Position numbers and translations under genes: made by a program. The notes under the pieces are model-generated. The model worked only from the letters and a program-made list of their open reading frames with translations. It did no database searches and had not been told where the DNA came from. Positions 9,044 through 27,463 of a stretch of DNA of 40,188 nucleotides are shown one piece after another; the first letter of the stretch is position 1, and each line of letters starts with the position of its first letter. Origin of the DNA: a virus (lineage: Duplodnaviria; Heunggongvirae; Uroviricota; Caudoviricetes); the IMG/VR virus record IMGVR_UViG_2534681762_000013; one strand, written 5' to 3'.

Positions 9044-9403
9044 GCGGCAAAACGAAATGTGGGAACAGGGGAAAATCAGATACCGGACATGGCTTCATTT
9101 AGTGGGGTGAGGGATTATTACGGAAAACAACTTTTGCCAGGAGGGTTGATACTTCAGTGGCTGACGATTCCATCAAGTGCAGCAGCCAAAGCTGTAACAC
9201 TGAATAATGGTAATTATCAGCTGTCAGGCTATAAATGGCCCCAGTCATTTGGTGTCCTGTTTGCTGTGTTTGCTACAAAAGTTTCTGGCTCGACTAACGA
9301 AGCATATGCAATCTCAGTTAATCGTCACTCTACCGATGTAATTGTCATCTGGAATGCCCGTAAGGCTGATGATGTCCACATTTTAGGAATTGGGGAATTA
9401 TGA
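9035..9403 (+). CDS. alternative tail-fibre C-terminal (variable) segment, currently in the silent orientation
   Basis: The open frame begins inside crossover site A with no independent start context; it would fuse in frame to the constant part of H after inversion, as in Mu G / P1 C segments. Confidence 0.55.
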
Positions 9404-9819
9404 CAATGAAATGGTCCCCATCTGTTCAGGGATTTTTCTCTGAAAATAACAGCGATATTCCCGATGATGCTTTCGATATTGAAGATGCTCTTTATTATGA
9501 ACTTATGAATGGTCAGAGTACGGGGAAAATTATTATCAATAACCCGGATAACTACCCTGTACTTACTGAATATCCAGCGAAGACACAGGAACAGGAAATA
9601 GCTGAAGCGGAGGGAATGAAAAGTATACTTATTGAACAGGCCAACGAATACATGAACAGTAAGCAATGGCCTGGTAAAGCCGCTATTGGTCGTCTGAAAG
9701 GTGAGGAACTGGCGCAATATAATTTGTGGCTGGATTACCTGGACGCACTGGAACTGGTCGATACTTCCGGTGCGCCAGATATTGAATGGCCTACGCCTCC
9801 GGCAGTTCAGGCCAGATGA
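9400..9819 (+). CDS. tail fibre assembly protein (Tfa), paired with the alternative fibre segment
   Basis: 139 aa ending ...[15 protein letters not shown], the conserved Tfa C-terminal motif; start overlaps the upstream stop (ATGA). Confidence 0.75.
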
Positions 9820-10002
9820 CGTCCGGCGCGGTGCTGGTATCTGATTCCATCACCGCGTCGATATTACCAACATCATATTCAGTCATTTCCGGTTCCGGTG
9901 GTGCTATAAACTCTCCGTCAGAATAGAACCAACCGACGCCTGCATCTGGTGATGCTGTCAACTTACTGATTTAGTGTATGATGGTGTTTTTGAGGTGCTC
10001 CA

Positions 10003-10278
10003 GTGGCTTCTGTTTCTATCAGCTGTCCCTCCTGTTCAGCTACTGACGGGGTGGTGCGTAACGGCAAAAGCACCGCCGGACATCAGCGCTATCTCTGCTC
10101 TCACTGCCGTAAAACATGGCAACTGCAGTTCACTTACACCGCTTCTCAACCCGGTACGCACCAGAAAATCATTGATATGGCCATGAATGGCGTTGGATGC
10201 CGGGCAACTGCCCGCATTATGGGCGTTGGCCTCAACACGATTTTACGTCACTTAAAAAACTCAGGCCGCAGTCGGTAA
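10003..10278 (+). CDS. insA: IS1 InsA
   Basis: 91 aa [39 protein letters not shown]..., recognised IS1 InsA; GTG start. Confidence 0.93.
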
Positions 10279-10700
10279 CCTCGCGCATACAGCCGGGCAG
10301 TGACGTCATCGTCTGCGCGGAAATGGACGAACAGTGGGGCTATGTCGGGGCTAAATCGCGCCAGCGCTGGCTGTTTTACGCGTATGACAGTCTCCGGAAG
10401 ACGGTTGTTGCGCACGTATTCGGTGAACGCACTATGGCGACGCTGGGGCGTCTTATGAGCCTGCTGTCACCCTTTGACGTGGTGATATGGATGACGGATG
10501 GCTGGCCGCTGTATGAATCCCGCCTGAAGGGAAAGCTGCACGTAATCAGCAAGCGATATACGCAGCGAATTGAGCGGCATAACCTGAATCTGAGGCAGCA
10601 CCTGGCACGGCTGGGACGGAAGTCGCTGTCGTTCTCAAAATCGGTGGAGCTGCATGACAAAGTCATCGGGCATTATCTGAACATAAAACACTATCAATAA
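10197..10700 (+). CDS. insB: IS1 InsB frame (transposase made as InsAB' fusion by frameshift)
   Basis: 167-aa frame ...[37 protein letters not shown]...; the A6C frameshift motif TTAAAAAAC lies at 10252..10260. Confidence 0.9.
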
Positions 10701-10830
10701 GTTGGAGTCATTACCCCTGCATCTATATGATCAATATTTATAATTTCGCAGTTAGAGAATAAATCACCCTCTCCATCCCAGATAATAATATTTTTCACCA
10801 CGCCATGTTCAATCAGAGCAAAATTACTCA

Positions 10831-12573
10831 TCAGGCATACTCCTCAACAATAACTATTCCCGGGGCACCGTCACCTCCCGATTGAGCCTCACTTCCGGCA
10901 GGTGCGCAGGCTCCGCCTCCGCCAGCACCAAAGCCCTCAGCTTTACCACCACCACGTCCGCTGAATGATGAAGAACTTGCACCACCTATACCGCCTGAAC
11001 CTAGTGGTGTATCCCCCCCGGTACCACCTGCAACAGCTTTAACAGAGATAACCATTGCTCCTGGTGTTTTTGCACTACAGCGAAATGTTCTTAGTACAGT
11101 ACCGGACGATGTCGGACTGGCACCCCATGAAATACCCTGAATATATGATGTGTTTGCAGATGCTCCCCCCGCGCCACCGCCTGTACCACCCGGTGCAGTT
11201 ATCAGGGAACCGAAATAAGTTGTGCCACCTTCACTACCTGAATTTCTTCCGGCTCCCCCCCCTTTACCTGCAGCACCGATAATAACGTTGACTTCGAAAT
11301 CATTATCAACCTCGAAAAATGCTTCAATAAATGCACCGCTCAATCCAGCTCCGGCTGTTGCCTGCTGATTTTCTGTTGTTTCAGGAACCCCACCGCCGCC
11401 GCCACCGCCACCAGAGGCAATGACCCTTATCTTTTTTGTCCCTGGTGTTGGGATATATTTTCCAGAGCTTTTAAAAATATTCGTGTTTAACAAACGACCA
11501 GAGAATCTGGCTTCTCCCAAACCAAGGTATTGTAGAAGGGCTGAAACACTTTTCCCGCTGAGGTTAGTCAAAGTGGCATCGAGGGGCTGTTTCCCCGCCA
11601 GCGCGTTCATCACTGTTGTCGCAAAGTTAGGATCATTCCCCAGCGCAGCTGCCAGTTCATTCAGTGTGTCCAGCGCCTCCGGCGATGAACCAACCAGCCC
11701 GGCAATAGCTGCCTTCACAAATGCTGTAGTGGCAATCTGCGTATTGTTCACAGTCTGCGCCGCAGTCGGAGCCGTTGGCGTTCCGGTCAGGGCTGGGCTT
11801 GCCAGTGGTGCTTTCAGTGCCAGCGCATTGTTAATGGTGGTACTGAAATTCGGGTCATTATTGATAGCTGCCGCAATTTCTTTCAGCGTATCCAGCGTTG
11901 CCGGTGCGCCACCTATCAGGGCAAGAATAGCGGCCTGTACAAAGGCTGTACTGGCAATCAGGGTGCTGTTGTTTCCTGCCGGTGGCGTTGGCGTTTTAGG
12001 CATGCCTGTCAGAGTCGGACTGTCTTTTGGTGCATATTGCGAATGAGGATCAACCGCAGCAAGATGCTTTGCCATCAGGTCATCCACATACACCTTAAGT
12101 TCCAGCACCTTATCATCCACATATTTGCGGGTTGCCAGAACCACAGCGGGGTCAATTTTCAGGGTGATGTTATCCGTGCTGCTGGTAATCAGTACCATTC
12201 GCACGGTCTGCGTGCGTCCGCTGCCCTCCGCCAGCTTCGGCTTGTAGCTCTCCGGGCAGTTTCCCACAGCAATTAGCGCACCTGTTTCATCAAACAGGCC
12301 GACTTCACGAATCCACCACCCGCCCTCATTTTCCGGGATCACCTGCTCAGCAATAATCTGGCTGCTGTTCTGTGGGTCGATATACAGCATATTCAGCGCT
12401 GCGCGGCGTTCCTCAGCCACTAACGCGGTCTGTTGCGCGTTGGGTGTGGGCAGCATACCACCACCGCTGCCCACCGCCATATGGGTAATTTTTAGTGGGA
12501 CACCGAGCGCGGCGGCGCTTACCAGTTTCGCCGCGCCGATATCCGTCAGCAGGGTGTAAAATTTTGCGCTCAT
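10831..12573 (-). CDS. H: tail fibre protein (gpH-like) with constant N-terminal part and a Gly-rich variable C-terminal part
   Basis: 580 aa; N-terminus MSAKFYTLLTDIGAAKL...MAVGSGGG matches remembered P2 gpH; crossover site B lies inside the gene at ...LQYLGLGEA. Confidence 0.85.
   Translation of the reverse strand: MSAKFYTLLTDIGAAKLVSAAALGVPLKITHMAVGSGGGMLPTPNAQQTALVAEERRAALNMLYIDPQNSSQIIAEQVIPENEGGWWIREVGLFDETGALIAVGNCPESYKPKLAEGSGRTQTVRMVLITSSTDNITLKIDPAVVLATRKYVDDKVLELKVYVDDLMAKHLAAVDPHSQYAPKDSPTLTGMPKTPTPPAGNNSTLIASTAFVQAAILALIGGAPATLDTLKEIAAAINNDPNFSTTINNALALKAPLASPALTGTPTAPTAAQTVNNTQIATTAFVKAAIAGLVGSSPEALDTLNELAAALGNDPNFATTVMNALAGKQPLDATLTNLSGKSVSALLQYLGLGEARFSGRLLNTNIFKSSGKYIPTPGTKKIRVIASGGGGGGGGVPETTENQQATAGAGLSGAFIEAFFEVDNDFEVNVIIGAAGKGGGAGRNSGSEGGTTYFGSLITAPGGTGGGAGGASANTSYIQGISWGASPTSSGTVLRTFRCSAKTPGAMVISVKAVAGGTGGDTPLGSGGIGGASSSSFSGRGGGKAEGFGAGGGGACAPAGSEAQSGGDGAPGIVIVEEYA
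11512..11537. other. invertase crossover site B (hix/gix-like) inside H
   Basis: TTCTCCCAAACCAAGGTATTGTAGAA; inverted partner of site A. Confidence 0.55.
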
Positions 12574-14076: not shown

Positions 14077-14422
14077 TGTCTGCTCCTGTTGATACGGAAA
14101 GGGAAACCGGTGCGCCGTTATTGCCGTGTCCGGTAAGTTCAACCACCATAGAGCCATCAAAATTGCCGTTGATGGTGATGGAGTCCAGCGTAAGGCGCGG
14201 CTCCCAACGGTTCAGCGCCACATAGACCGCAGACATAATCTGCAGGCGCAGCGCCGGGGTCTGCGGCTGGTCTATCAGGGCAGACAGCAGGGAACCATAT
14301 TCCCGACGCGCAAGACGACTGCCCTGCGGCGTCAGCAGAATATCCCGCACCGACTGGCGCAGATGGTCTGTATCTGCAATGGTCTGCCCGTCATTCCTGC
14401 TCATACCGATATACAACGTCAT
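14063..14422 (-). CDS. W: baseplate wedge protein gpW-like
   Basis: 119-aa ORF between V and J, P2 order. Confidence 0.8.
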   Translation of the reverse strand: MTLYIGMSRNDGQTIADTDHLRQSVRDILLTPQGSRLARREYGSLLSALIDQPQTPALRLQIMSAVYVALNRWEPRLTLDSITINGNFDGSMVVELTGHGNNGAPVSLSVSTGADNGSH

Positions 14423-15015
14423 ACCGGTCCCCCCGTGTTGTCGCCGCCTTTCAGAACGCCAGTATGCTCATGGTCATCAACTACGATCCCGTTAGAACTC
14501 ATTGCGCCGCCGCCCTGGGTGACGCCGCCATTGATCACCACCTCGCTGTTAATGCGCGTGGTGTCAGCCTCCACCACAAACTCACCGGTTTTGTAGGTGA
14601 TACTGTCTGATGCCTCGATCACCATGGATTTGATGCCCCTGACATGCCACCGTCCGGTGGCGGGTTCATACTCAAACCATCCCCCGTCCGGGTACTCCGT
14701 CACGCAGCCGTCCACGGAATCCGACGGTGGCGGAAACTGATTGGAGTAGATAGCGGGCAGCACAAAAGCGGTTTCCAGATTGCCGCCCATGCTCAGCAAC
14801 ACCACCTGCTCATCCGGCGACGGACACCACCATGTACGGGCACCACCGGCGCGCAGCGTCAGCCAGTTAATCCAGTTAGTTTCAAGCTCGCCCACTTTCA
14901 CCCGACACAGCCACTTTTTCCGGTCCACTTCGGTCACAGTGCCGGTACGGATCAGATTGGTGATAAGGCGCATGATTTCGGTAAGTTGTGTGTTCATACT
15001 GCCTATATTGAACAT
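14419..15015 (-). CDS. V: baseplate spike/assembly protein gpV-like
   Basis: 198-aa ORF, first gene of the V-W-J-I-H block. Confidence 0.82.
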   Translation of the reverse strand: MFNIGSMNTQLTEIMRLITNLIRTGTVTEVDRKKWLCRVKVGELETNWINWLTLRAGGARTWWCPSPDEQVVLLSMGGNLETAFVLPAIYSNQFPPPSDSVDGCVTEYPDGGWFEYEPATGRWHVRGIKSMVIEASDSITYKTGEFVVEADTTRINSEVVINGGVTQGGGAMSSNGIVVDDHEHTGVLKGGDNTGGPV

Positions 15016-15105
15016 TTGAAATGATTCGTACGAACCAGCATAATTGTGTTATAGCTGGTACAAACAGTTGATAAGTTCGACTCAACCAAAACAAGGAGTA
15101 AGTTG

Positions 15106-16359
15106 ATGTATAAAATACAAAGCATCGCTATCAATGGTTTTTGGCAAAGATTAAATGCTCTTTGCTCTTTTAATGATGATGTAAACATCATCATTGGAAG
15201 GAATGGAACCGGCAAAACAACTTTTATGAATATTTTGCATTCAATTTTATCAATTGACCTTGATGGCATTAACAACAATGATTTCAATAGTGCCGAAATA
15301 AAACTAAAGGACAAAAAGAAAACTAAGACAATAAAAATTAAGAAAATCGAGAGTGATACATCACCGTTCTCTAAAATAGAGTATCAACTTTCATCAAAAA
15401 AACATACCATCCGACTATTCAACGCCGATGACAGAAGAATCTCCCTCAGTTATAGACGCAGAGCACAAGAAGAGACTGAGGAGTTAAGAGCAGAATTAGC
15501 AAAACTGGTTTCACTCTCATCTTTATCCGTCTATAGACTAAGGAATAGTGACGACTTTGAGGTTAGAGACAAATACGGCTCTCGCTTTATCAACCCTGTC
15601 GATTATAAACTATCAGAATTAATGCAGGAATTAACAAAATATCAACTTGAATTATCTCAACGAGCGAGAGATATTGCATTAGAACTTCAAAAAGAAGTTT
15701 TAGCATCTATTCTATATAGTAAAGATGATATTGATGATAAGGCGTACAACATTCAATTTAACAAGGAGGAAGAAAAACAAAACCTTTTAAGTGCGTACAC
15801 ACAACTAAACGCTATTGATATGAATGTCCGTCGGAAAATAAATTTCCATGTTGACACTATTGATCACACCATTGCAGAATTAAAACAAAATAAAAAAGAT
15901 GGTTTTGACATCCGCTCAATTGAAGCGCTAAGAAAGACACAAAAAATAATTAGAATGTCTTTAAAATCTAAAGAAAAAACATCTTTAGTTTTCGCTCCCA
16001 TTGAACAATTTTTAAGTATTTTAAAAGAATTTATTACTGATAAGGAATTTGACTTTCAAGGCGGAATACTTTCCATAAAGAATACTTACGGACCAATAAT
16101 TCAGGAAAATTTATCTTCAGGTGAGAAGCAATTACTTATTTTATTCATAGAAACCCTATTACAAAGAGAAAAACAATATATTTTCCTAACAGATGAGCCT
16201 GAACTCTCCCTACATATTCAATGGCAAAGAAACATTATCCCAGCAATCAAAAAACTCAATCCCAATGCACAAGTAATAGCTGCCACACATTCTCCAGAAG
16301 TAGCTTCAAAATACAGGAGTGCAATTTTTAACATGGAGAAACTTGTCAATGTCCAATAA
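15106..16359 (+). CDS. ABC/OLD-family ATPase (AriA-like), first gene of a two-gene cargo operon
   Basis: 417 aa from the ATG with an AAGGAG RBS 7 nt upstream; Walker A GRNGTGKTT, ABC signature-like LSSGEKQ, Walker B IFLTDEPE, His-switch ATHS; strongly AT-rich codon usage unlike flanking phage genes. Confidence 0.8.
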   Translation: MYKIQSIAINGFWQRLNALCSFNDDVNIIIGRNGTGKTTFMNILHSILSIDLDGINNNDFNSAEIKLKDKKKTKTIKIKKIESDTSPFSKIEYQLSSKKHTIRLFNADDRRISLSYRRRAQEETEELRAELAKLVSLSSLSVYRLRNSDDFEVRDKYGSRFINPVDYKLSELMQELTKYQLELSQRARDIALELQKEVLASILYSKDDIDDKAYNIQFNKEEEKQNLLSAYTQLNAIDMNVRRKINFHVDTIDHTIAELKQNKKDGFDIRSIEALRKTQKIIRMSLKSKEKTSLVFAPIEQFLSILKEFITDKEFDFQGGILSIKNTYGPIIQENLSSGEKQLLILFIETLLQREKQYIFLTDEPELSLHIQWQRNIIPAIKKLNPNAQVIAATHSPEVASKYRSAIFNMEKLVNVQ

Positions 16360-17206
16360 TGAGATTCGAACAGATAACTTTAATTGGTCTGACGAGGCGG
16401 AAAATGTTATCAGCATGTTTTATGATGCTGATATCATGGTATATGTTGAAGGTGAGGATGATATTGGATTTTGGGAAATAGTTTTCAAAAAAAATGGTCG
16501 ACTAAGTGTTGAAGTGCAAGAAGTTGGAGGGTGTGAAGCATTAGAACCTTATATTGAGCGAATCACATCAGGACAAATAAACGCAATTGTTGCCCGCGAT
16601 GCAGATCTGAATCATTTTTCATCCAACTTAGTAAATCATACAAACATCATCTATACAAAAGGTTACTCAATTGAAAATACTATAGTCGATGAGAAAGTCC
16701 TATCCCGTGTGTTAAAACACATGGGAAGATACAGTGCCAAAGAAATCCAAGGAATAAATATAAACTCCTGGCTATTAGAGTTTTATAACAATATTGAAGA
16801 CCTAATTGCCTTAGATATTTACAATCATTTAAATCAGCGTGGCTATTCCGTAGTAGGTGATTCATGCGATAGATTTATGCAATCAAAAAACTCTTACAAA
16901 ACATGTCAAGATAAGATAAATGCTTATATTCAAACCCTTCCTGATGATTTCAGAAATGTAGGGTTAGCAGAAAAAAACAACATTCAATTTCCTGCCAACA
17001 CTTGCATAACGCATTGGATAAAGGGGCACTTTCTATTCTCAGCATCATTAAGATTCATAACCAATTACTTAGCTAAAAATGAGAGAAAAACTGCAATATC
17101 AAAAGATAGTTTTTATTCAAATATGCTAACGGCTTTTGAATTATTCTTTACTGAAGAACATGCGGATTATGATTACTACAATCAAAAAATATCACTAATT
17201 TCATAG
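16349..17206 (+). CDS. DUF4435/TOPRIM-like protein (AriB-like), second gene of the cargo operon
   Basis: 285 aa from MSNNEIR; start overlaps the gene-1 stop by 11 nt with a GGAG RBS; acidic motifs VYVEGEDD and ARDAD consistent with a TOPRIM-type metal site; AT-rich. Confidence 0.72.
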   Translation: MSNNEIRTDNFNWSDEAENVISMFYDADIMVYVEGEDDIGFWEIVFKKNGRLSVEVQEVGGCEALEPYIERITSGQINAIVARDADLNHFSSNLVNHTNIIYTKGYSIENTIVDEKVLSRVLKHMGRYSAKEIQGININSWLLEFYNNIEDLIALDIYNHLNQRGYSVVGDSCDRFMQSKNSYKTCQDKINAYIQTLPDDFRNVGLAEKNNIQFPANTCITHWIKGHFLFSASLRFITNYLAKNERKTAISKDSFYSNMLTAFELFFTEEHADYDYYNQKISLIS

Positions 17207-17210
17207 AGTT

Positions 17211-17250
17211 ATGGCTGGCAATTAGCCAGCCATTTGGCTTTACTATTTTT
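17211..17250 (+). terminator. hairpin plus T-tract between the convergent cargo operon and gene S
   Basis: ATGGCTGGC-AATTA-GCCAGCCAT stem-loop followed by TTTGGCTTTACTATTTTTT. Confidence 0.4.
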
Positions 17251-17262
17251 TACCACGATACA

Positions 17263-17709
17263 TTATGTATTAAATAAAGACATAATTAATATATTTTTAA
17301 TGCAATCATTATTCTCATTGAATCCAAGTAACCTTCGTTCTCTATAAATTACTAATGGTCCATTGCGGCTAACACGATCACGTAAGCCGTAATGGTGTAC
17401 CCGAGCGATACGCTGCACTTGTCCCACAAACTGCACGCTCGCAGAGTTCGCGCTCACTGCAGCTTTCAGGTATTTGGTGGTGCGAAGTTTTGCAAACATC
17501 TGGCGTTTGATGCGCTCCTTTTTGCTGCGGGCTGTTACCCGGCGCGGCTCGTAGCCGGTTCCGTCGGGGTTGCGCTGCAGGCGGATGTTGTTCTGCTGAT
17601 TTCGACGCAGCTGCTGCGCCAGTTCACACATCATGTGCTGACGCGCAGCCGGCTCCAGATTCGCCAGCAGCGCTGTCAGCCACTCATCCACTTTATGCAG
17701 ATTTTCCAC
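17263..17709 (-). CDS. S: tail completion protein gpS-like
   Basis: 148-aa ORF in P2 position after R. Confidence 0.75.
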   Translation of the reverse strand: MENLHKVDEWLTALLANLEPAARQHMMCELAQQLRRNQQNNIRLQRNPDGTGYEPRRVTARSKKERIKRQMFAKLRTTKYLKAAVSANSASVQFVGQVQRIARVHHYGLRDRVSRNGPLVIYRERRLLGFNENNDCIKNILIMSLFNT

Positions 17710-26029: not shown

Positions 26030-26062
26030 TAATCACCTACTCATCAACAACAATATTCAAAC

Positions 26063-26095
26063 AGGCCGCTAATCATGCGGCCTTAATTTATTTAC
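26063..26095. terminator. bidirectional hairpin terminator between Q and the convergent small-gene operon
   Basis: AGGCCGC-TAATCAT-GCGGCCT stem-loop with AT/T-rich flanks. Confidence 0.45.
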
Positions 26096-26361
26096 CAATT
26101 TCGACCAGGAGCCTTTAACCATGTAGAACAAGAATAATTTAATGAGGCCCAAGATTTTTGTAAACGAGCAACAAAGATCACATCGTTACTATCAACATTT
26201 GCTTTAAGTCCATCACGCAATTGCGCTGCAGAAAGCGTGGTATCGATTAACCAAAAGGATTCTAAATGTTTGCAGTAGTCAAACTTTTTGAGATAGGTAA
26301 AAACATCATCATAGTTCTTGCCTGGAGCTTTCAAGTCATACGTTACACAATAGACCGCCAT
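26092..26361 (-). CDS. hypothetical 89-aa protein (weak VapD/Cas2-like N-terminal pattern)
   Basis: AT-rich ORF with a GGAG RBS, 3 nt downstream of the zinc-ribbon gene; the N-terminus MAVYCVTYDLK... loosely recalls the first strand of VapD/Cas2-fold proteins. Confidence 0.5.
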   Translation of the reverse strand: MAVYCVTYDLKAPGKNYDDVFTYLKKFDYCKHLESFWLIDTTLSAAQLRDGLKANVDSNDVIFVARLQKSWASLNYSCSTWLKAPGRNW

Positions 26362-26364
26362 CTT

Positions 26365-26547
26365 TTATGCTCCGCACTTTTTATCATTTGGAGAACATCT
26401 TAATCGACGACATCTGCGACAATATGATTGTGGAATCAAACGTTCCCCTTCCATCATTCTAAAACCAAATACCTCTTCAATTTTGTTCAGATCACCACTT
26501 GCAGCGACCCCACAACAAGGACAATAAGCTTTAACTTGATACGGCAT
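26365..26547 (-). CDS. hypothetical 60-aa C4 zinc-ribbon protein
   Basis: CPCC...CRRC cysteine pairs; start taken at the Met with a GGAG RBS; AT-rich; forms an operon with the 89-aa gene. Confidence 0.45.
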   Translation of the reverse strand: MPYQVKAYCPCCGVAASGDLNKIEEVFGFRMMEGERLIPQSYCRRCRRLRCSPNDKKCGA

Positions 26548-26647
26548 GTTTATCTCCATTTCACATGTTTTGAGTAGAGTAATCTATCCGTCCAAGCAAA
26601 AATGAGACATAGCTCTTGAAAGCTGTCCCAAACCAACCAGCGCGCGC

Positions 26648-26666
26648 TCGTATCCCCGCCACGCCT
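26648..26666. other. candidate cos (cohesive end) site
   Basis: The reverse complement of TCCCCGCCACGCC at 26652..26664 is GGCGTGGCGGGGA, matching the start of the 186/P2 cohesive-end sequence as remembered; position after Q fits P2 organisation. Confidence 0.35.
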
Positions 26667-26868
26667 GCCCGCTTTGTGTAGTGGTTTTCATGCACCTGCA
26701 TGACATAAGCAAAAGCCCGCCAGTTCTGGCGGGCCTGAGCAAAAACGATCCTCAAACGATCATGCGATTTCATGCGGCATAGACATGCACAACAGCGCTA
26801 ACGCCTCGCGTGGCTCGTTGTTCAACCTTGCGGACGGTAAAAACCAGTTTTATCGTCCGCAACGTTCG

Positions 26869-27102
26869 CTAATGTAACCAGCTGTCGTCCTCCCAGACCT
26901 GCTGCATTATTTCCATCACTCGCTTTTTATCTTCATCCAGTTTTAACCCGCTCAGCTCTACGCCGTTGGCGCTGCCCTTACGGATACGAATTGCTGTTTT
27001 GGGATACAGAGGGCGCAAATTACGGTAAAGCTCGGATTCAAGGGCGTCCAGTGTAGCCTGGCTAATCTTCTGCTCTTTATCGATCATTATTTCAATGCGC
27101 AT
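26869..27102 (-). CDS. DinI-family protein
   Basis: 77 aa MRIEIMIDKEQKISQATLDALESELYRNL...EIMQQVWEDDSW, the DinI fold pattern; downstream gene of the LexA-box operon. Confidence 0.8.
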   Translation of the reverse strand: MRIEIMIDKEQKISQATLDALESELYRNLRPLYPKTAIRIRKGSANGVELSGLKLDEDKKRVMEIMQQVWEDDSWLH

Positions 27103-27113
27103 ACAGATTCCCC

Positions 27114-27302
27114 TTAACTGGTTACATCCATTGACCGGCAGTATTCATGGCTGCGGATTTTCGCCATCAGCTCGTCGGTCAGTTCGGACACCCACTGGAT
27201 AGCCAGCCGCTTTTCTTCGTCGCTACACTCACTAGCCGCTACAAGCTTGATAAAAAAATCAATGCGCTGGAGCTTCAACGACTCCAAAAGATAATCCTGC
27301 AT
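27114..27302 (-). CDS. small SOS-operon protein, candidate Tum-like antirepressor
   Basis: 62 aa from the Met with a GGAGGG RBS; located between the LexA box and the DinI-like gene, mirroring the SOS-induced tum locus of phage 186; the ORF-track 98-aa version would span the promoter. Confidence 0.45.
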   Translation of the reverse strand: MQDYLLESLKLQRIDFFIKLVAASECSDEEKRLAIQWVSELTDELMAKIRSHEYCRSMDVTS

Positions 27303-27351
27303 TTTCCCTCCTATCACCACCTCGGATACACAACAACTGTATATATATCCA

Positions 27352-27367
27352 CTGTTTATAATTACAG
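27352..27367. promoter_or_regulatory. LexA (SOS) box overlapping the promoter of the Tum-like/DinI-like operon
   Basis: CTGTTTATAATTACAG fits CTGT-N8-ACAG with an AT-rich spacer; an adjacent imperfect copy lies at 27337..27354; about 50 nt upstream of the start codon at 27302. Confidence 0.6.
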
Positions 27368-27463
27368 TATAGTAGGAATTTGCGAATGTAAACCGTTTTT
27401 TATCTGTCAATTAGATCGCTCTGATGCGGATCAATAAGAGCAAGAATTGTTAAAGCTGCGGCA

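Follow-up and report, generated by a model that had tools for sequence, protein, structure and literature searches.

A divergent two-gene module, probably a PARIS-type anti-phage system, between tail genes V and S of a P2-family prophage

The window analysed here is a stretch of 40,188 nucleotides from IMG/VR virus record IMGVR_UViG_2534681762_000013, and its segment 15016-17262 carries two plus-strand open reading frames (ORFs) that lie antisense to the flanking P2-family tail genes V and S. With a probability of about 0.82, we conclude that these ORFs constitute a two-gene anti-phage system of PARIS (phage anti-restriction-induced system) type, which is class 4 OLD-like, and that they are a moron of a Fels-2/186-like prophage of the P2 family in E. 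coli. Gene 1 would encode the ATPase AriA and gene 2 the nuclease AriB. The split OLD-like architecture of PARIS had been proposed for the pair in an earlier note on the letters of the window, and the published definition of the system agrees with it. That definition, a MacSyFinder rule, calls for adjacent genes, one scoring at least 32 bits for AAA_15 or at least 27 for AAA_21 and the other at least 27 bits for DUF4435 (Rousset et al. 2022, PMC9122126). In the profile searches that the earlier note had proposed, gene 1 scores 76.5 bits for AAA_15 and 72.1 bits for AAA_21, both above the curated Pfam cut-offs, and the adjacent gene 2 scores 92.4 bits for DUF4435. The best PADLOC matches are AriA for gene 1 (E = 1.8e-36) and AriB for gene 2 (E = 8.6e-23). 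The module is already recognisable by standard defence-annotation rules and would be labelled PARIS by DefenseFinder or PADLOC, a routine case for genome annotation. Other resources are less specific: in RefSeq the genes are just an 'AAA family ATPase' and a 'DUF4435 domain-containing protein', PHROGs places both proteins in families of unknown function, and neither protein passes any NCBIfam model.

Gene 1 is a full-length AriA homologue with an intact ABC ATPase site. The motifs first noticed in its 417-residue product, GRNGTGKTT, LSSGEKQ, FLTDEPE and the His-switch ATHSPE, are all there, and they are invariant or nearly so in an alignment of 50 homologues. They supply Walker A K37, the signature LSSGEKQ at 336-342, Walker B D363-E364 and H-loop H395. 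K37 and E364 are invariant among the 50 sequences and align by hhalign with K39 and E393 of reference AriA, the Walker A and Walker B residues of an ATPase site that must be intact for PARIS defence. A search of PDB sequences with the 50-sequence profile returned AriA as its top match (E = 1.3e-26). The reference system is PARIS-2 of E. coli B185, carried by a P4-like satellite, which is triggered by Ocr, cleaves tRNA-Lys and has been solved in structures 8ux9 and 8v45-8v49. A fragment search for its AriA gave truncated entries only; a strain with a broken ariA and an intact ariB was used in their place, and the B185-type AriA was rebuilt from its P4-like satellite (locus L020), which also encodes the solved AriB. 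The ariA of that satellite is interrupted by a stop codon and a frameshift. Aligned to the rebuilt protein with hhalign, the ATPase profile gives a probability of 99.4% and E = 5.7e-22 over 363 columns, pairing residues 4-415 with 6-440.

The predicted structure of gene 1 points the same way. Its AlphaFold model, with a predicted local distance difference test (pLDDT) score of 80.5, has its two ATPase lobes separated by long helices (164-201, 239-260 and 269-309), which fits the description of AriA as an ABC ATPase with helical or coiled-coil insertions. The best 15 Foldseek matches of the model are all AriA chains, at template modelling (TM) scores of 0.58-0.66; PtuA, Rad50 and SMC do not exceed 0.48. 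A nearly invariant arginine cluster with the consensus DDRRxxxxYRRR at 108-119 (R110, R111 and R117-R119) aligns with the central-pore residues R116 and R119 of B185 AriA, and the radial-pore residue R168 of B185 aligns by hhalign with R160. A low-confidence loop of the model, at 145-154, directly precedes R160 and recalls the disordered, positively charged pore loops reported for AriA.

Gene 2 encodes an AriB, but a very divergent one. It is 285 codons long, as first described, and is predicted to have the AriB fold with the complete two-metal acidic set of a TOPRIM nuclease. The acidic motifs VYVEGEDD and ARDAD, to which the earlier note had drawn attention, recur in the family alignment as VYVEG-DD and A-D-D, which together with SIEN are invariant or nearly so. 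The structure prediction called for in that note gave an AlphaFold model (pLDDT 91.5) with a TOPRIM domain and a C-terminal helical domain, whose first Foldseek match is AriB, at a probability of 1.00, a TM score of 0.55 and 12% identity; across the fold comparisons, identity to solved AriB is 11-12%. Residues E34, D38, D84, D86 and E109 are invariant in 48 homologues and align with AriB E26, D30, D88, E90 and E122, which are the ligands of the two TOPRIM metals (PMC11464382). Gene 2 and AriB also have in common an RGH...LFSA motif, located at 225-231.

The earlier note had left it undecided whether the pair is a known PARIS variant or a divergent relative. It has the composition that defines PARIS, yet its lineage is distinct from both of the tested systems, B185 and PARIS-1 of E. 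coli O42. Compared with AriB sequences taken from the supplementary tables of Rousset et al. (PARIS-1 of O42 and the PARIS of the P2 A-Q hotspot) and with B185 AriB, the window AriB matches PARIS-1 AriB by blastp at E = 0.013 over 35 residues and B185 AriB at E = 0.58, and PARIS-1 matches B185 at E = 1.4. The window protein is therefore as far from either as the two are from each other, and represents a third lineage. Since 11 co-evolving AriA/AriB clades have been described (Burman et al. 2024), a divergent clade is expected and is not new in kind. The lineage is large, with about 308 clusters at 50% identity matching at E of 1e-30 or less and 1,707 at 1e-3 or less; nearly all of its 150 best-scoring members are about 270-290 residues long, a few being shorter or reaching about 307. 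Its hosts include Enterobacterales, Aeromonas, Vibrio, Shewanella, Pseudoalteromonas, cyanobacteria and other groups. In the Pfam release used, B185-type AriB (L020:5516-6439), in contrast to the window protein, has no DUF4435 match with E up to 1 and finds only DUF3226, at 0.03; in the original PARIS paper, HHpred assigned B185 AriB at 99.8%. The window type is thus the mainstream of DUF4435 and the solved AriB the outlier.

Several observations weigh against the assignment to PARIS. Searched as a single sequence, gene 2 finds nothing among PDB sequences at E up to 1, solved AriB included, and the 48-member family profile finds nothing in PDB at E up to 10. The link to AriB, being undetectable by sequence search, required the fold comparison together with a targeted hhalign of the gene 2 profile to solved AriB, and that alignment is itself weak (E = 0.019, probability 2.5%). 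B185 AriB residues R28 and R31, which form salt bridges to AriA, correspond to E36 and I39 in gene 2, and K60 and K64, which hold the anticodon loop of the tRNA (PMC12409363), correspond to A64 and a gap, all of these in low-confidence regions of the alignment. On the ATPase side, the radial-pore residue R172 of B185 is aligned to P164. Co-evolution of the AriA/AriB interface is expected, and the pore residues of AriA are poorly conserved and vary between clades (Burman et al. 2024). Expression is a further concern. The promoter predicted for the operon is weak, the promoter scan as a whole being not enriched over shuffled sequence, and PARIS-1 of O42, a distant homologue of B185, is inactive from its native promoter (PMC9122126), so native expression of the module cannot be assumed. 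A literature search found no publication describing a functional test of the window lineage.

The pair has been maintained as a unit. The same V-S junction in E. coli holds three alleles of the lineage, with AriB identities of 100%, 72% (locus L007) and 43% (L010) to the window protein, in 9, 3 and 19 genomes respectively, or 31 of the 5,426 complete E. coli genomes searched. At all homologous loci both genes are retained and their stop and start codons overlap; in the window the ATG of gene 2 lies 11 nucleotides ahead of the TAA of gene 1 (16357-16359), the overlap given in the earlier note. The 43% allele is packaged by an isolated phage, vB_EcoM-813R9, which was found by a protein-mode search; a megablast of the operon DNA against the phage collection gave no match. 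A 75% allele in Salmonella lies in a MobA/TraD/shufflon element and a 46% allele on a Yersinia plasmid. In every comparison between alleles the ATPase is the better conserved of the two proteins (ATPase/nuclease identity 85.6/71.6%, 79.9/75.1% and 62.9/42.7%). Synonymous divergence (dS) is saturated, so that a numerical ratio to non-synonymous divergence (dN) could not be computed for the ATPase; the values of dN itself are 0.09-0.30 (ATPase) and 0.17-0.50 (nuclease). Purifying selection acts on both genes, which are translationally coupled and occur only as a pair. Two further loci, L008 (GCA_019743635.1) and L009 (GCA_019757195.1), are decayed P2-like prophages in which large internal deletions have removed tail or head genes and the cassette stands intact beside S.

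By analogy with B185, the operon would be transcribed in the lysogen from its own promoter, and AriA would form a scaffold, dependent on ATP, in which inactive AriB is sequestered. The arginine-rich pore region of AriA (DDRR…YRRR, 108-119) would be the binding site for a protein of the infecting phage, probably a DNA mimic with negative charge or an anti-restriction protein. AriB would then be released, dimerise and cut host RNA, most likely a tRNA; translation would stop and the infection would be aborted. Judging from the alignments, the B185 AriB residues that contact the anticodon loop and AriA are not conserved here, and the trigger and exact RNA target therefore probably differ from those of B185.

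How far such a difference goes is the main alternative to be weighed. If the pair had the PARIS architecture with another trigger and another nucleic-acid target, neither sensing Ocr nor cutting tRNA-Lys, it would be a functionally distinct variant, a possibility to which we give somewhat less than an even chance. The 11-12% identity to solved AriB speaks for it, as do the replacement of K60, K64, R28 and R31, the finding that the lineage is as distant from PARIS-1 and PARIS-2 as these are from one another, the different defence profiles already recorded for those two systems, the reported variability of AriA pore residues between clades and a nuclease that evolves about twice as fast as the ATPase. 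What the proteins share with B185 pulls in the other direction: the catalytic core and the C-terminal RGH…LFSA motif, which includes the equivalent of B185 R236, a contact to the tRNA D-loop in the published AlphaFold 3 model, and an arginine cluster at the central-pore position that is compatible with sensing an acidic DNA mimic.

Readings outside PARIS fare worse. The module might be a toxin-antitoxin system that stabilises the prophage and senses no phage, with AriB as toxin and AriA as antitoxin; the Pfam entry for AAA_21 speaks of a putative AbiEii toxin from a type IV toxin-antitoxin system, some PDB depositors label AriA an antitoxin, and decayed prophages have kept the cassette. We consider this improbable, given that in the reference system deletion of either gene is non-toxic and abolishes defence (PMC9122126), that AriB is not protective by itself and depends on AriA for activation (PMC11464382), and that the same slot holds several recognisable defence genes. 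Membership in another ABC-ATPase defence family, whether Septu or retron PtuA/PtuB, Gabija or a split P2 Old, is very unlikely: many PADLOC PtuA models do match gene 1 at 1e-12 to 1e-22, as does NCBIfam PtuA at 3e-17, but the matches fall far under the family cut-offs (62.6 bits against 500 for NCBIfam PtuA), the partner is a DUF4435/TOPRIM protein and neither an HNH PtuB nor a GajB helicase, and structural ranking sets AriA well above PtuA (whose TM score is at most 0.48) and AriB well above OLD. Septu or retron PtuA-PtuB membership was rejected on these grounds, and membership in class 1 or class 2 OLD (P2 Old, GajA) because the two functions sit on separate ORFs and no helicase neighbour is present in the annotation of the near-identical prophage of E. 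coli strain 702/18. There is just as little to recommend an inactive relic hitch-hiking with the prophage. The rarity of the allele (9 of 5,426 genomes) and of the lineage (31 of 5,426) and a promoter that is only predicted would suit a relic; strains from unrelated sources, however, have intact ORFs that are 99.8-100% identical, every catalytic residue is invariant, and dN is far under the saturated dS. A PARIS-type defence system accounts best for the pair.

The coordinates of the module and its neighbours are collected in Table 1. Its G+C content is 0.30-0.37 (about 0.33 overall) against 0.55-0.62 (about 0.57) in the flanks, where V and S lie on the minus strand, as expected of the AT-rich antisense insert originally described. 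Gene 1 has a ribosome-binding site, AAGGAG, at 15093-15098, seven bases 5' of its ATG, with an alternative TTG start one codon upstream that would give 418 residues; gene 2 is preceded by a GGAG at 16335-16338. In Fels-2 and Yersinia phage MLG42 the V-S junction is empty and 68 bp long. BLAST comparison with these two and with phage SEN8 shows homology stopping at the ATG of V (14997/14998), and homology to the empty-site phages returns only at about 17357, inside S, a breakpoint found against the L010 allele as well. The exchanged module consequently extends over 14998-17356 and includes the 3' end of S. The extent of 15016-17262 given at the outset holds for the two ORFs but is too small for the unit that is exchanged. 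That unit takes in the C-terminal codons of gpS and carries the pV promoter element. S proteins are identical to about residue 131 and thereafter depend on the cargo, with the window, Fels-2/MLG42 and SEN8 each having an ending of its own; the S of strain 702/18 agrees with that of the window until a stop four codons earlier. Because its last 17-20 or so codons vary with the cargo, exchange of the module rewrites the C-terminus of an essential tail protein.

Table 1. Positions of the module, its genes and regulatory elements, and the flanking tail genes in the window
Feature	Position	Strand	Description
Gene 1 (ariA-like)	15106-16359	+	417 amino acids counted from ATG; ABC/OLD-type ATPase
Gene 2 (ariB-like)	16349-17206	+	285 amino acids; DUF4435/TOPRIM nuclease
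gpV, baseplate assembly protein V	14419-14997	-	Flanking core gene, left breakpoint at its ATG; ORF, RefSeq annotation of matching prophage
gpS, tail completion / virion morphogenesis protein	17263-17709	-	Flanking core gene; ORF, RefSeq annotation of matching prophage, S protein alignment
Whole exchanged AT-rich module	14998-17356	.	Promoter region, ariA-like, ariB-like, terminator, variable S 3' end; composition and loss of homology
Variable gpS 3' end	17263-17356	-	Last ~17-20 codons, AT-rich, varying with cargo; protein alignment and DNA breakpoints
Predicted sigma-70 promoter of operon	15016-15044	+	TTGAAA, 17 nucleotides, CATAAT; 10/12 matches
Ogr/Delta-type late activator site of pV	15045-15062	-	TGT-N12-ACA, TGTACCAGCTATAACACA; distance to V ATG same as in Fels-2 empty site
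Intrinsic terminator	17211-17255	+	9-bp G+C-rich hairpin (17211-17233), then T-rich tract; between convergent ariB and S

The location between S and V had been recognised from the beginning, but it is more than a gap between two tail genes. In the P2 record the order at this junction is the terminator of the O operon, the antisense gene orf30, the Ogr activator site of pV, and V, which bears out the statement in the earlier note that P2 itself carries the nonessential orf30 here; two late operons meet at the insertion site, the O operon (…R-S) ending and the V operon starting there. An activator site corresponding to the TGT-N12-ACA element of the window is annotated in the P2 record, and every cargo variant examined has its own version of the element at an equal distance from V. 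The call of the operon promoter rests on its hexamers, which with their 17-nucleotide spacing are kept in the 72% allele L007 although the spacer sequence has diverged, and which were not found in the 43% allele. The -10 side of this predicted promoter abuts the TGT-N12-ACA element and overlaps the core of pV on the opposite strand, suggesting that activation of the late genes and expression of the defence operon may be mutually exclusive. One may speculate that activator binding during late lytic growth represses the operon. Site-specific insertion was rejected as the origin of the module: beyond chance matches in AT-rich sequence no direct or inverted repeats flank it, and there is no dif/Xer-like site, the best match having 10 mismatches in 28 positions. 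More likely, cargo is exchanged when the conserved flanks in V and S recombine. No Rfam family was found in the module; the single Rfam match in the window is the transfer-messenger RNA (tmRNA) gene at 698-1060.

The V-S (P2 orf30) junction is a recurrent cargo slot. When the complete E. coli genomes were queried with a composite of the 5' end of V and the conserved part of S, 1,204 of the 5,426 matched; V and S are joined in 566 of these (an empty site or short cargo), and in most of the others they lie more than about 0.8 kb apart. The cargo sampled was always antisense to the tail genes. It includes a 598-residue fused ATPase-TOPRIM protein of E. coli EC931 (L016:2608-4404), which has a DUF3226/TOPRIM-like C-terminus and matches the PADLOC model AriAB best and GajA models too, a GmrSD_N and Schlafen protein (NsnA/PD-T4-2_A-like), and in Salmonella phage SEN8 an FRG protein that corresponds to PADLOC candidate PDC-S15. 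Neither a defence family nor an informative Pfam domain was matched by a 386-residue protein (L014:3270-4430), a 179-residue protein (L013:3829-4368), a DUF6216 protein of the BL21 lineage (L017:3659-4465) or P2 orf30 (L019:1440-2225). Among P2-family phages, Rousset et al. analysed only the A-Q hotspot, to which Vassallo et al. added the Z/fun locus and the iLund4u preprint a hotspot lying between cI and a tail protein. Defence loci 'within the late genes' and 'downstream of GpL' appear in a 2026 preprint, and the latter may be the V-S slot.

The DNA of the module is 99.8-100% identical in nine of the 5,426 complete E. coli genomes and chromosomal in every case. In E. coli strain 702/18 it lies within a complete Fels-2/186-like prophage (CI, CII, Fil, Dam, ogr) integrated beside ssrA. 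The window prophage is likewise integrated beside smpB and ssrA, the window beginning at smpB and the tmRNA gene. Satellite L020 with its reference-type PARIS also adjoins smpB (L020 8431-8913), so both elements use the same chromosomal neighbourhood. The prophage of strain 702/18 is 99.7-99.8% identical to the window except in the tail-fibre region at about 9044-11510, which holds a short match in inverted orientation at 9667-9862; at the corresponding place strain 702/18 has an annotated recombinase-family gene and convergent tail-fibre assembly genes. These features are consistent with an invertible host-range segment. A 580-residue tail-fibre-like ORF is encoded on the minus strand at 10831-12573, with long GGxGG runs in a C-terminal third that is unusually rich in glycine. 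The classical P2 defence hotspot (the old/tin position, about 26030-27460, between portal gene Q and replication gene A) is occupied by a small hypothetical gene, DinI and another small ORF; judged from the annotation of the near-identical 702/18 prophage, there is no recognisable defence system in it, the ORFs having not been scanned against PADLOC.

Mechanistic knowledge of PARIS comes from B185 alone, and B185 AriB stands apart from the rest of the DUF4435 family. The window lineage has kept the catalytic core and not the contact residues of B185, and could therefore show how general Ocr sensing and tRNA-Lys cleavage are. The V-S junction is now documented as a recurrent slot for defence cargo, useful for mining uncharacterised genes, and the unexplained genes found there (P2 orf30, DUF6216, the 179-residue and the 386-residue proteins) become candidates for unknown functions in a slot that otherwise holds defence genes. 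A more far-reaching picture, which we offer tentatively and regard as doubtful, combines several of these threads: the lineage would be a functionally distinct PARIS variant that senses another phage protein and cuts another RNA, the prophage would shut off its own system when the late genes fire, and the V-S junction would be a bona fide, poorly described defence hotspot whose cargo moves together with a variant of pV and the C-terminus of gpS.

Comparison with known systems puts these conclusions in context. P2 Old (class 1 OLD) and Gabija GajA (class 2) are likewise phage-borne defence proteins that combine an ABC ATPase with a TOPRIM nuclease, but in a fused form, whereas the window has the two on separate ORFs. 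P2 orf30 and the other V-S morons occupy the same antisense slot, between the O-operon terminator and the pV activator site; orf30 is unrelated to the module in sequence and has no PADLOC or Pfam match. The L007 allele (72% AriB) and the L010/vB_EcoM-813R9 allele (43%) have the same site, antisense orientation, gene overlap and right breakpoint in S, and differ from the window in synonymous sites diverged to saturation and, for the 43% allele, in lacking the same predicted promoter hexamers. PARIS-1 of O42, active only when induced and with a defence range that overlaps with but differs from that of B185 (Rousset et al. 2022), also pairs an AAA_15/21 ATPase with a DUF4435 partner; it belongs to a different lineage, its AriB being closer to that of the P2 A-Q hotspot PARIS (E = 5e-22). 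From PARIS-2 of B185 the window system is set apart by shorter proteins (417 against 464 residues for AriA, 47 fewer, and 285 against 308 for AriB), by an AriB of 11-12% identity that sequence search does not detect and that scores 92 bits on Pfam DUF4435 where B185 AriB gives no match at E of 1 or less, by the lack of conservation of AriB R28, R31, K60 and K64 and AriA R172, and by its place at the V-S junction of a P2-family helper-type prophage, the B185 operon lying between psu and int of a P4 satellite. Like B185, it is a two-gene operon on a mobile viral element in which an ATPase gene overlaps the nuclease gene that follows it, with a full-length AriA homologue (27% identity in the aligned columns) that has the Walker A lysine, the Walker B glutamate, the signature and the H-loop in common with the reference and a cluster of arginines at the position of the central pore.

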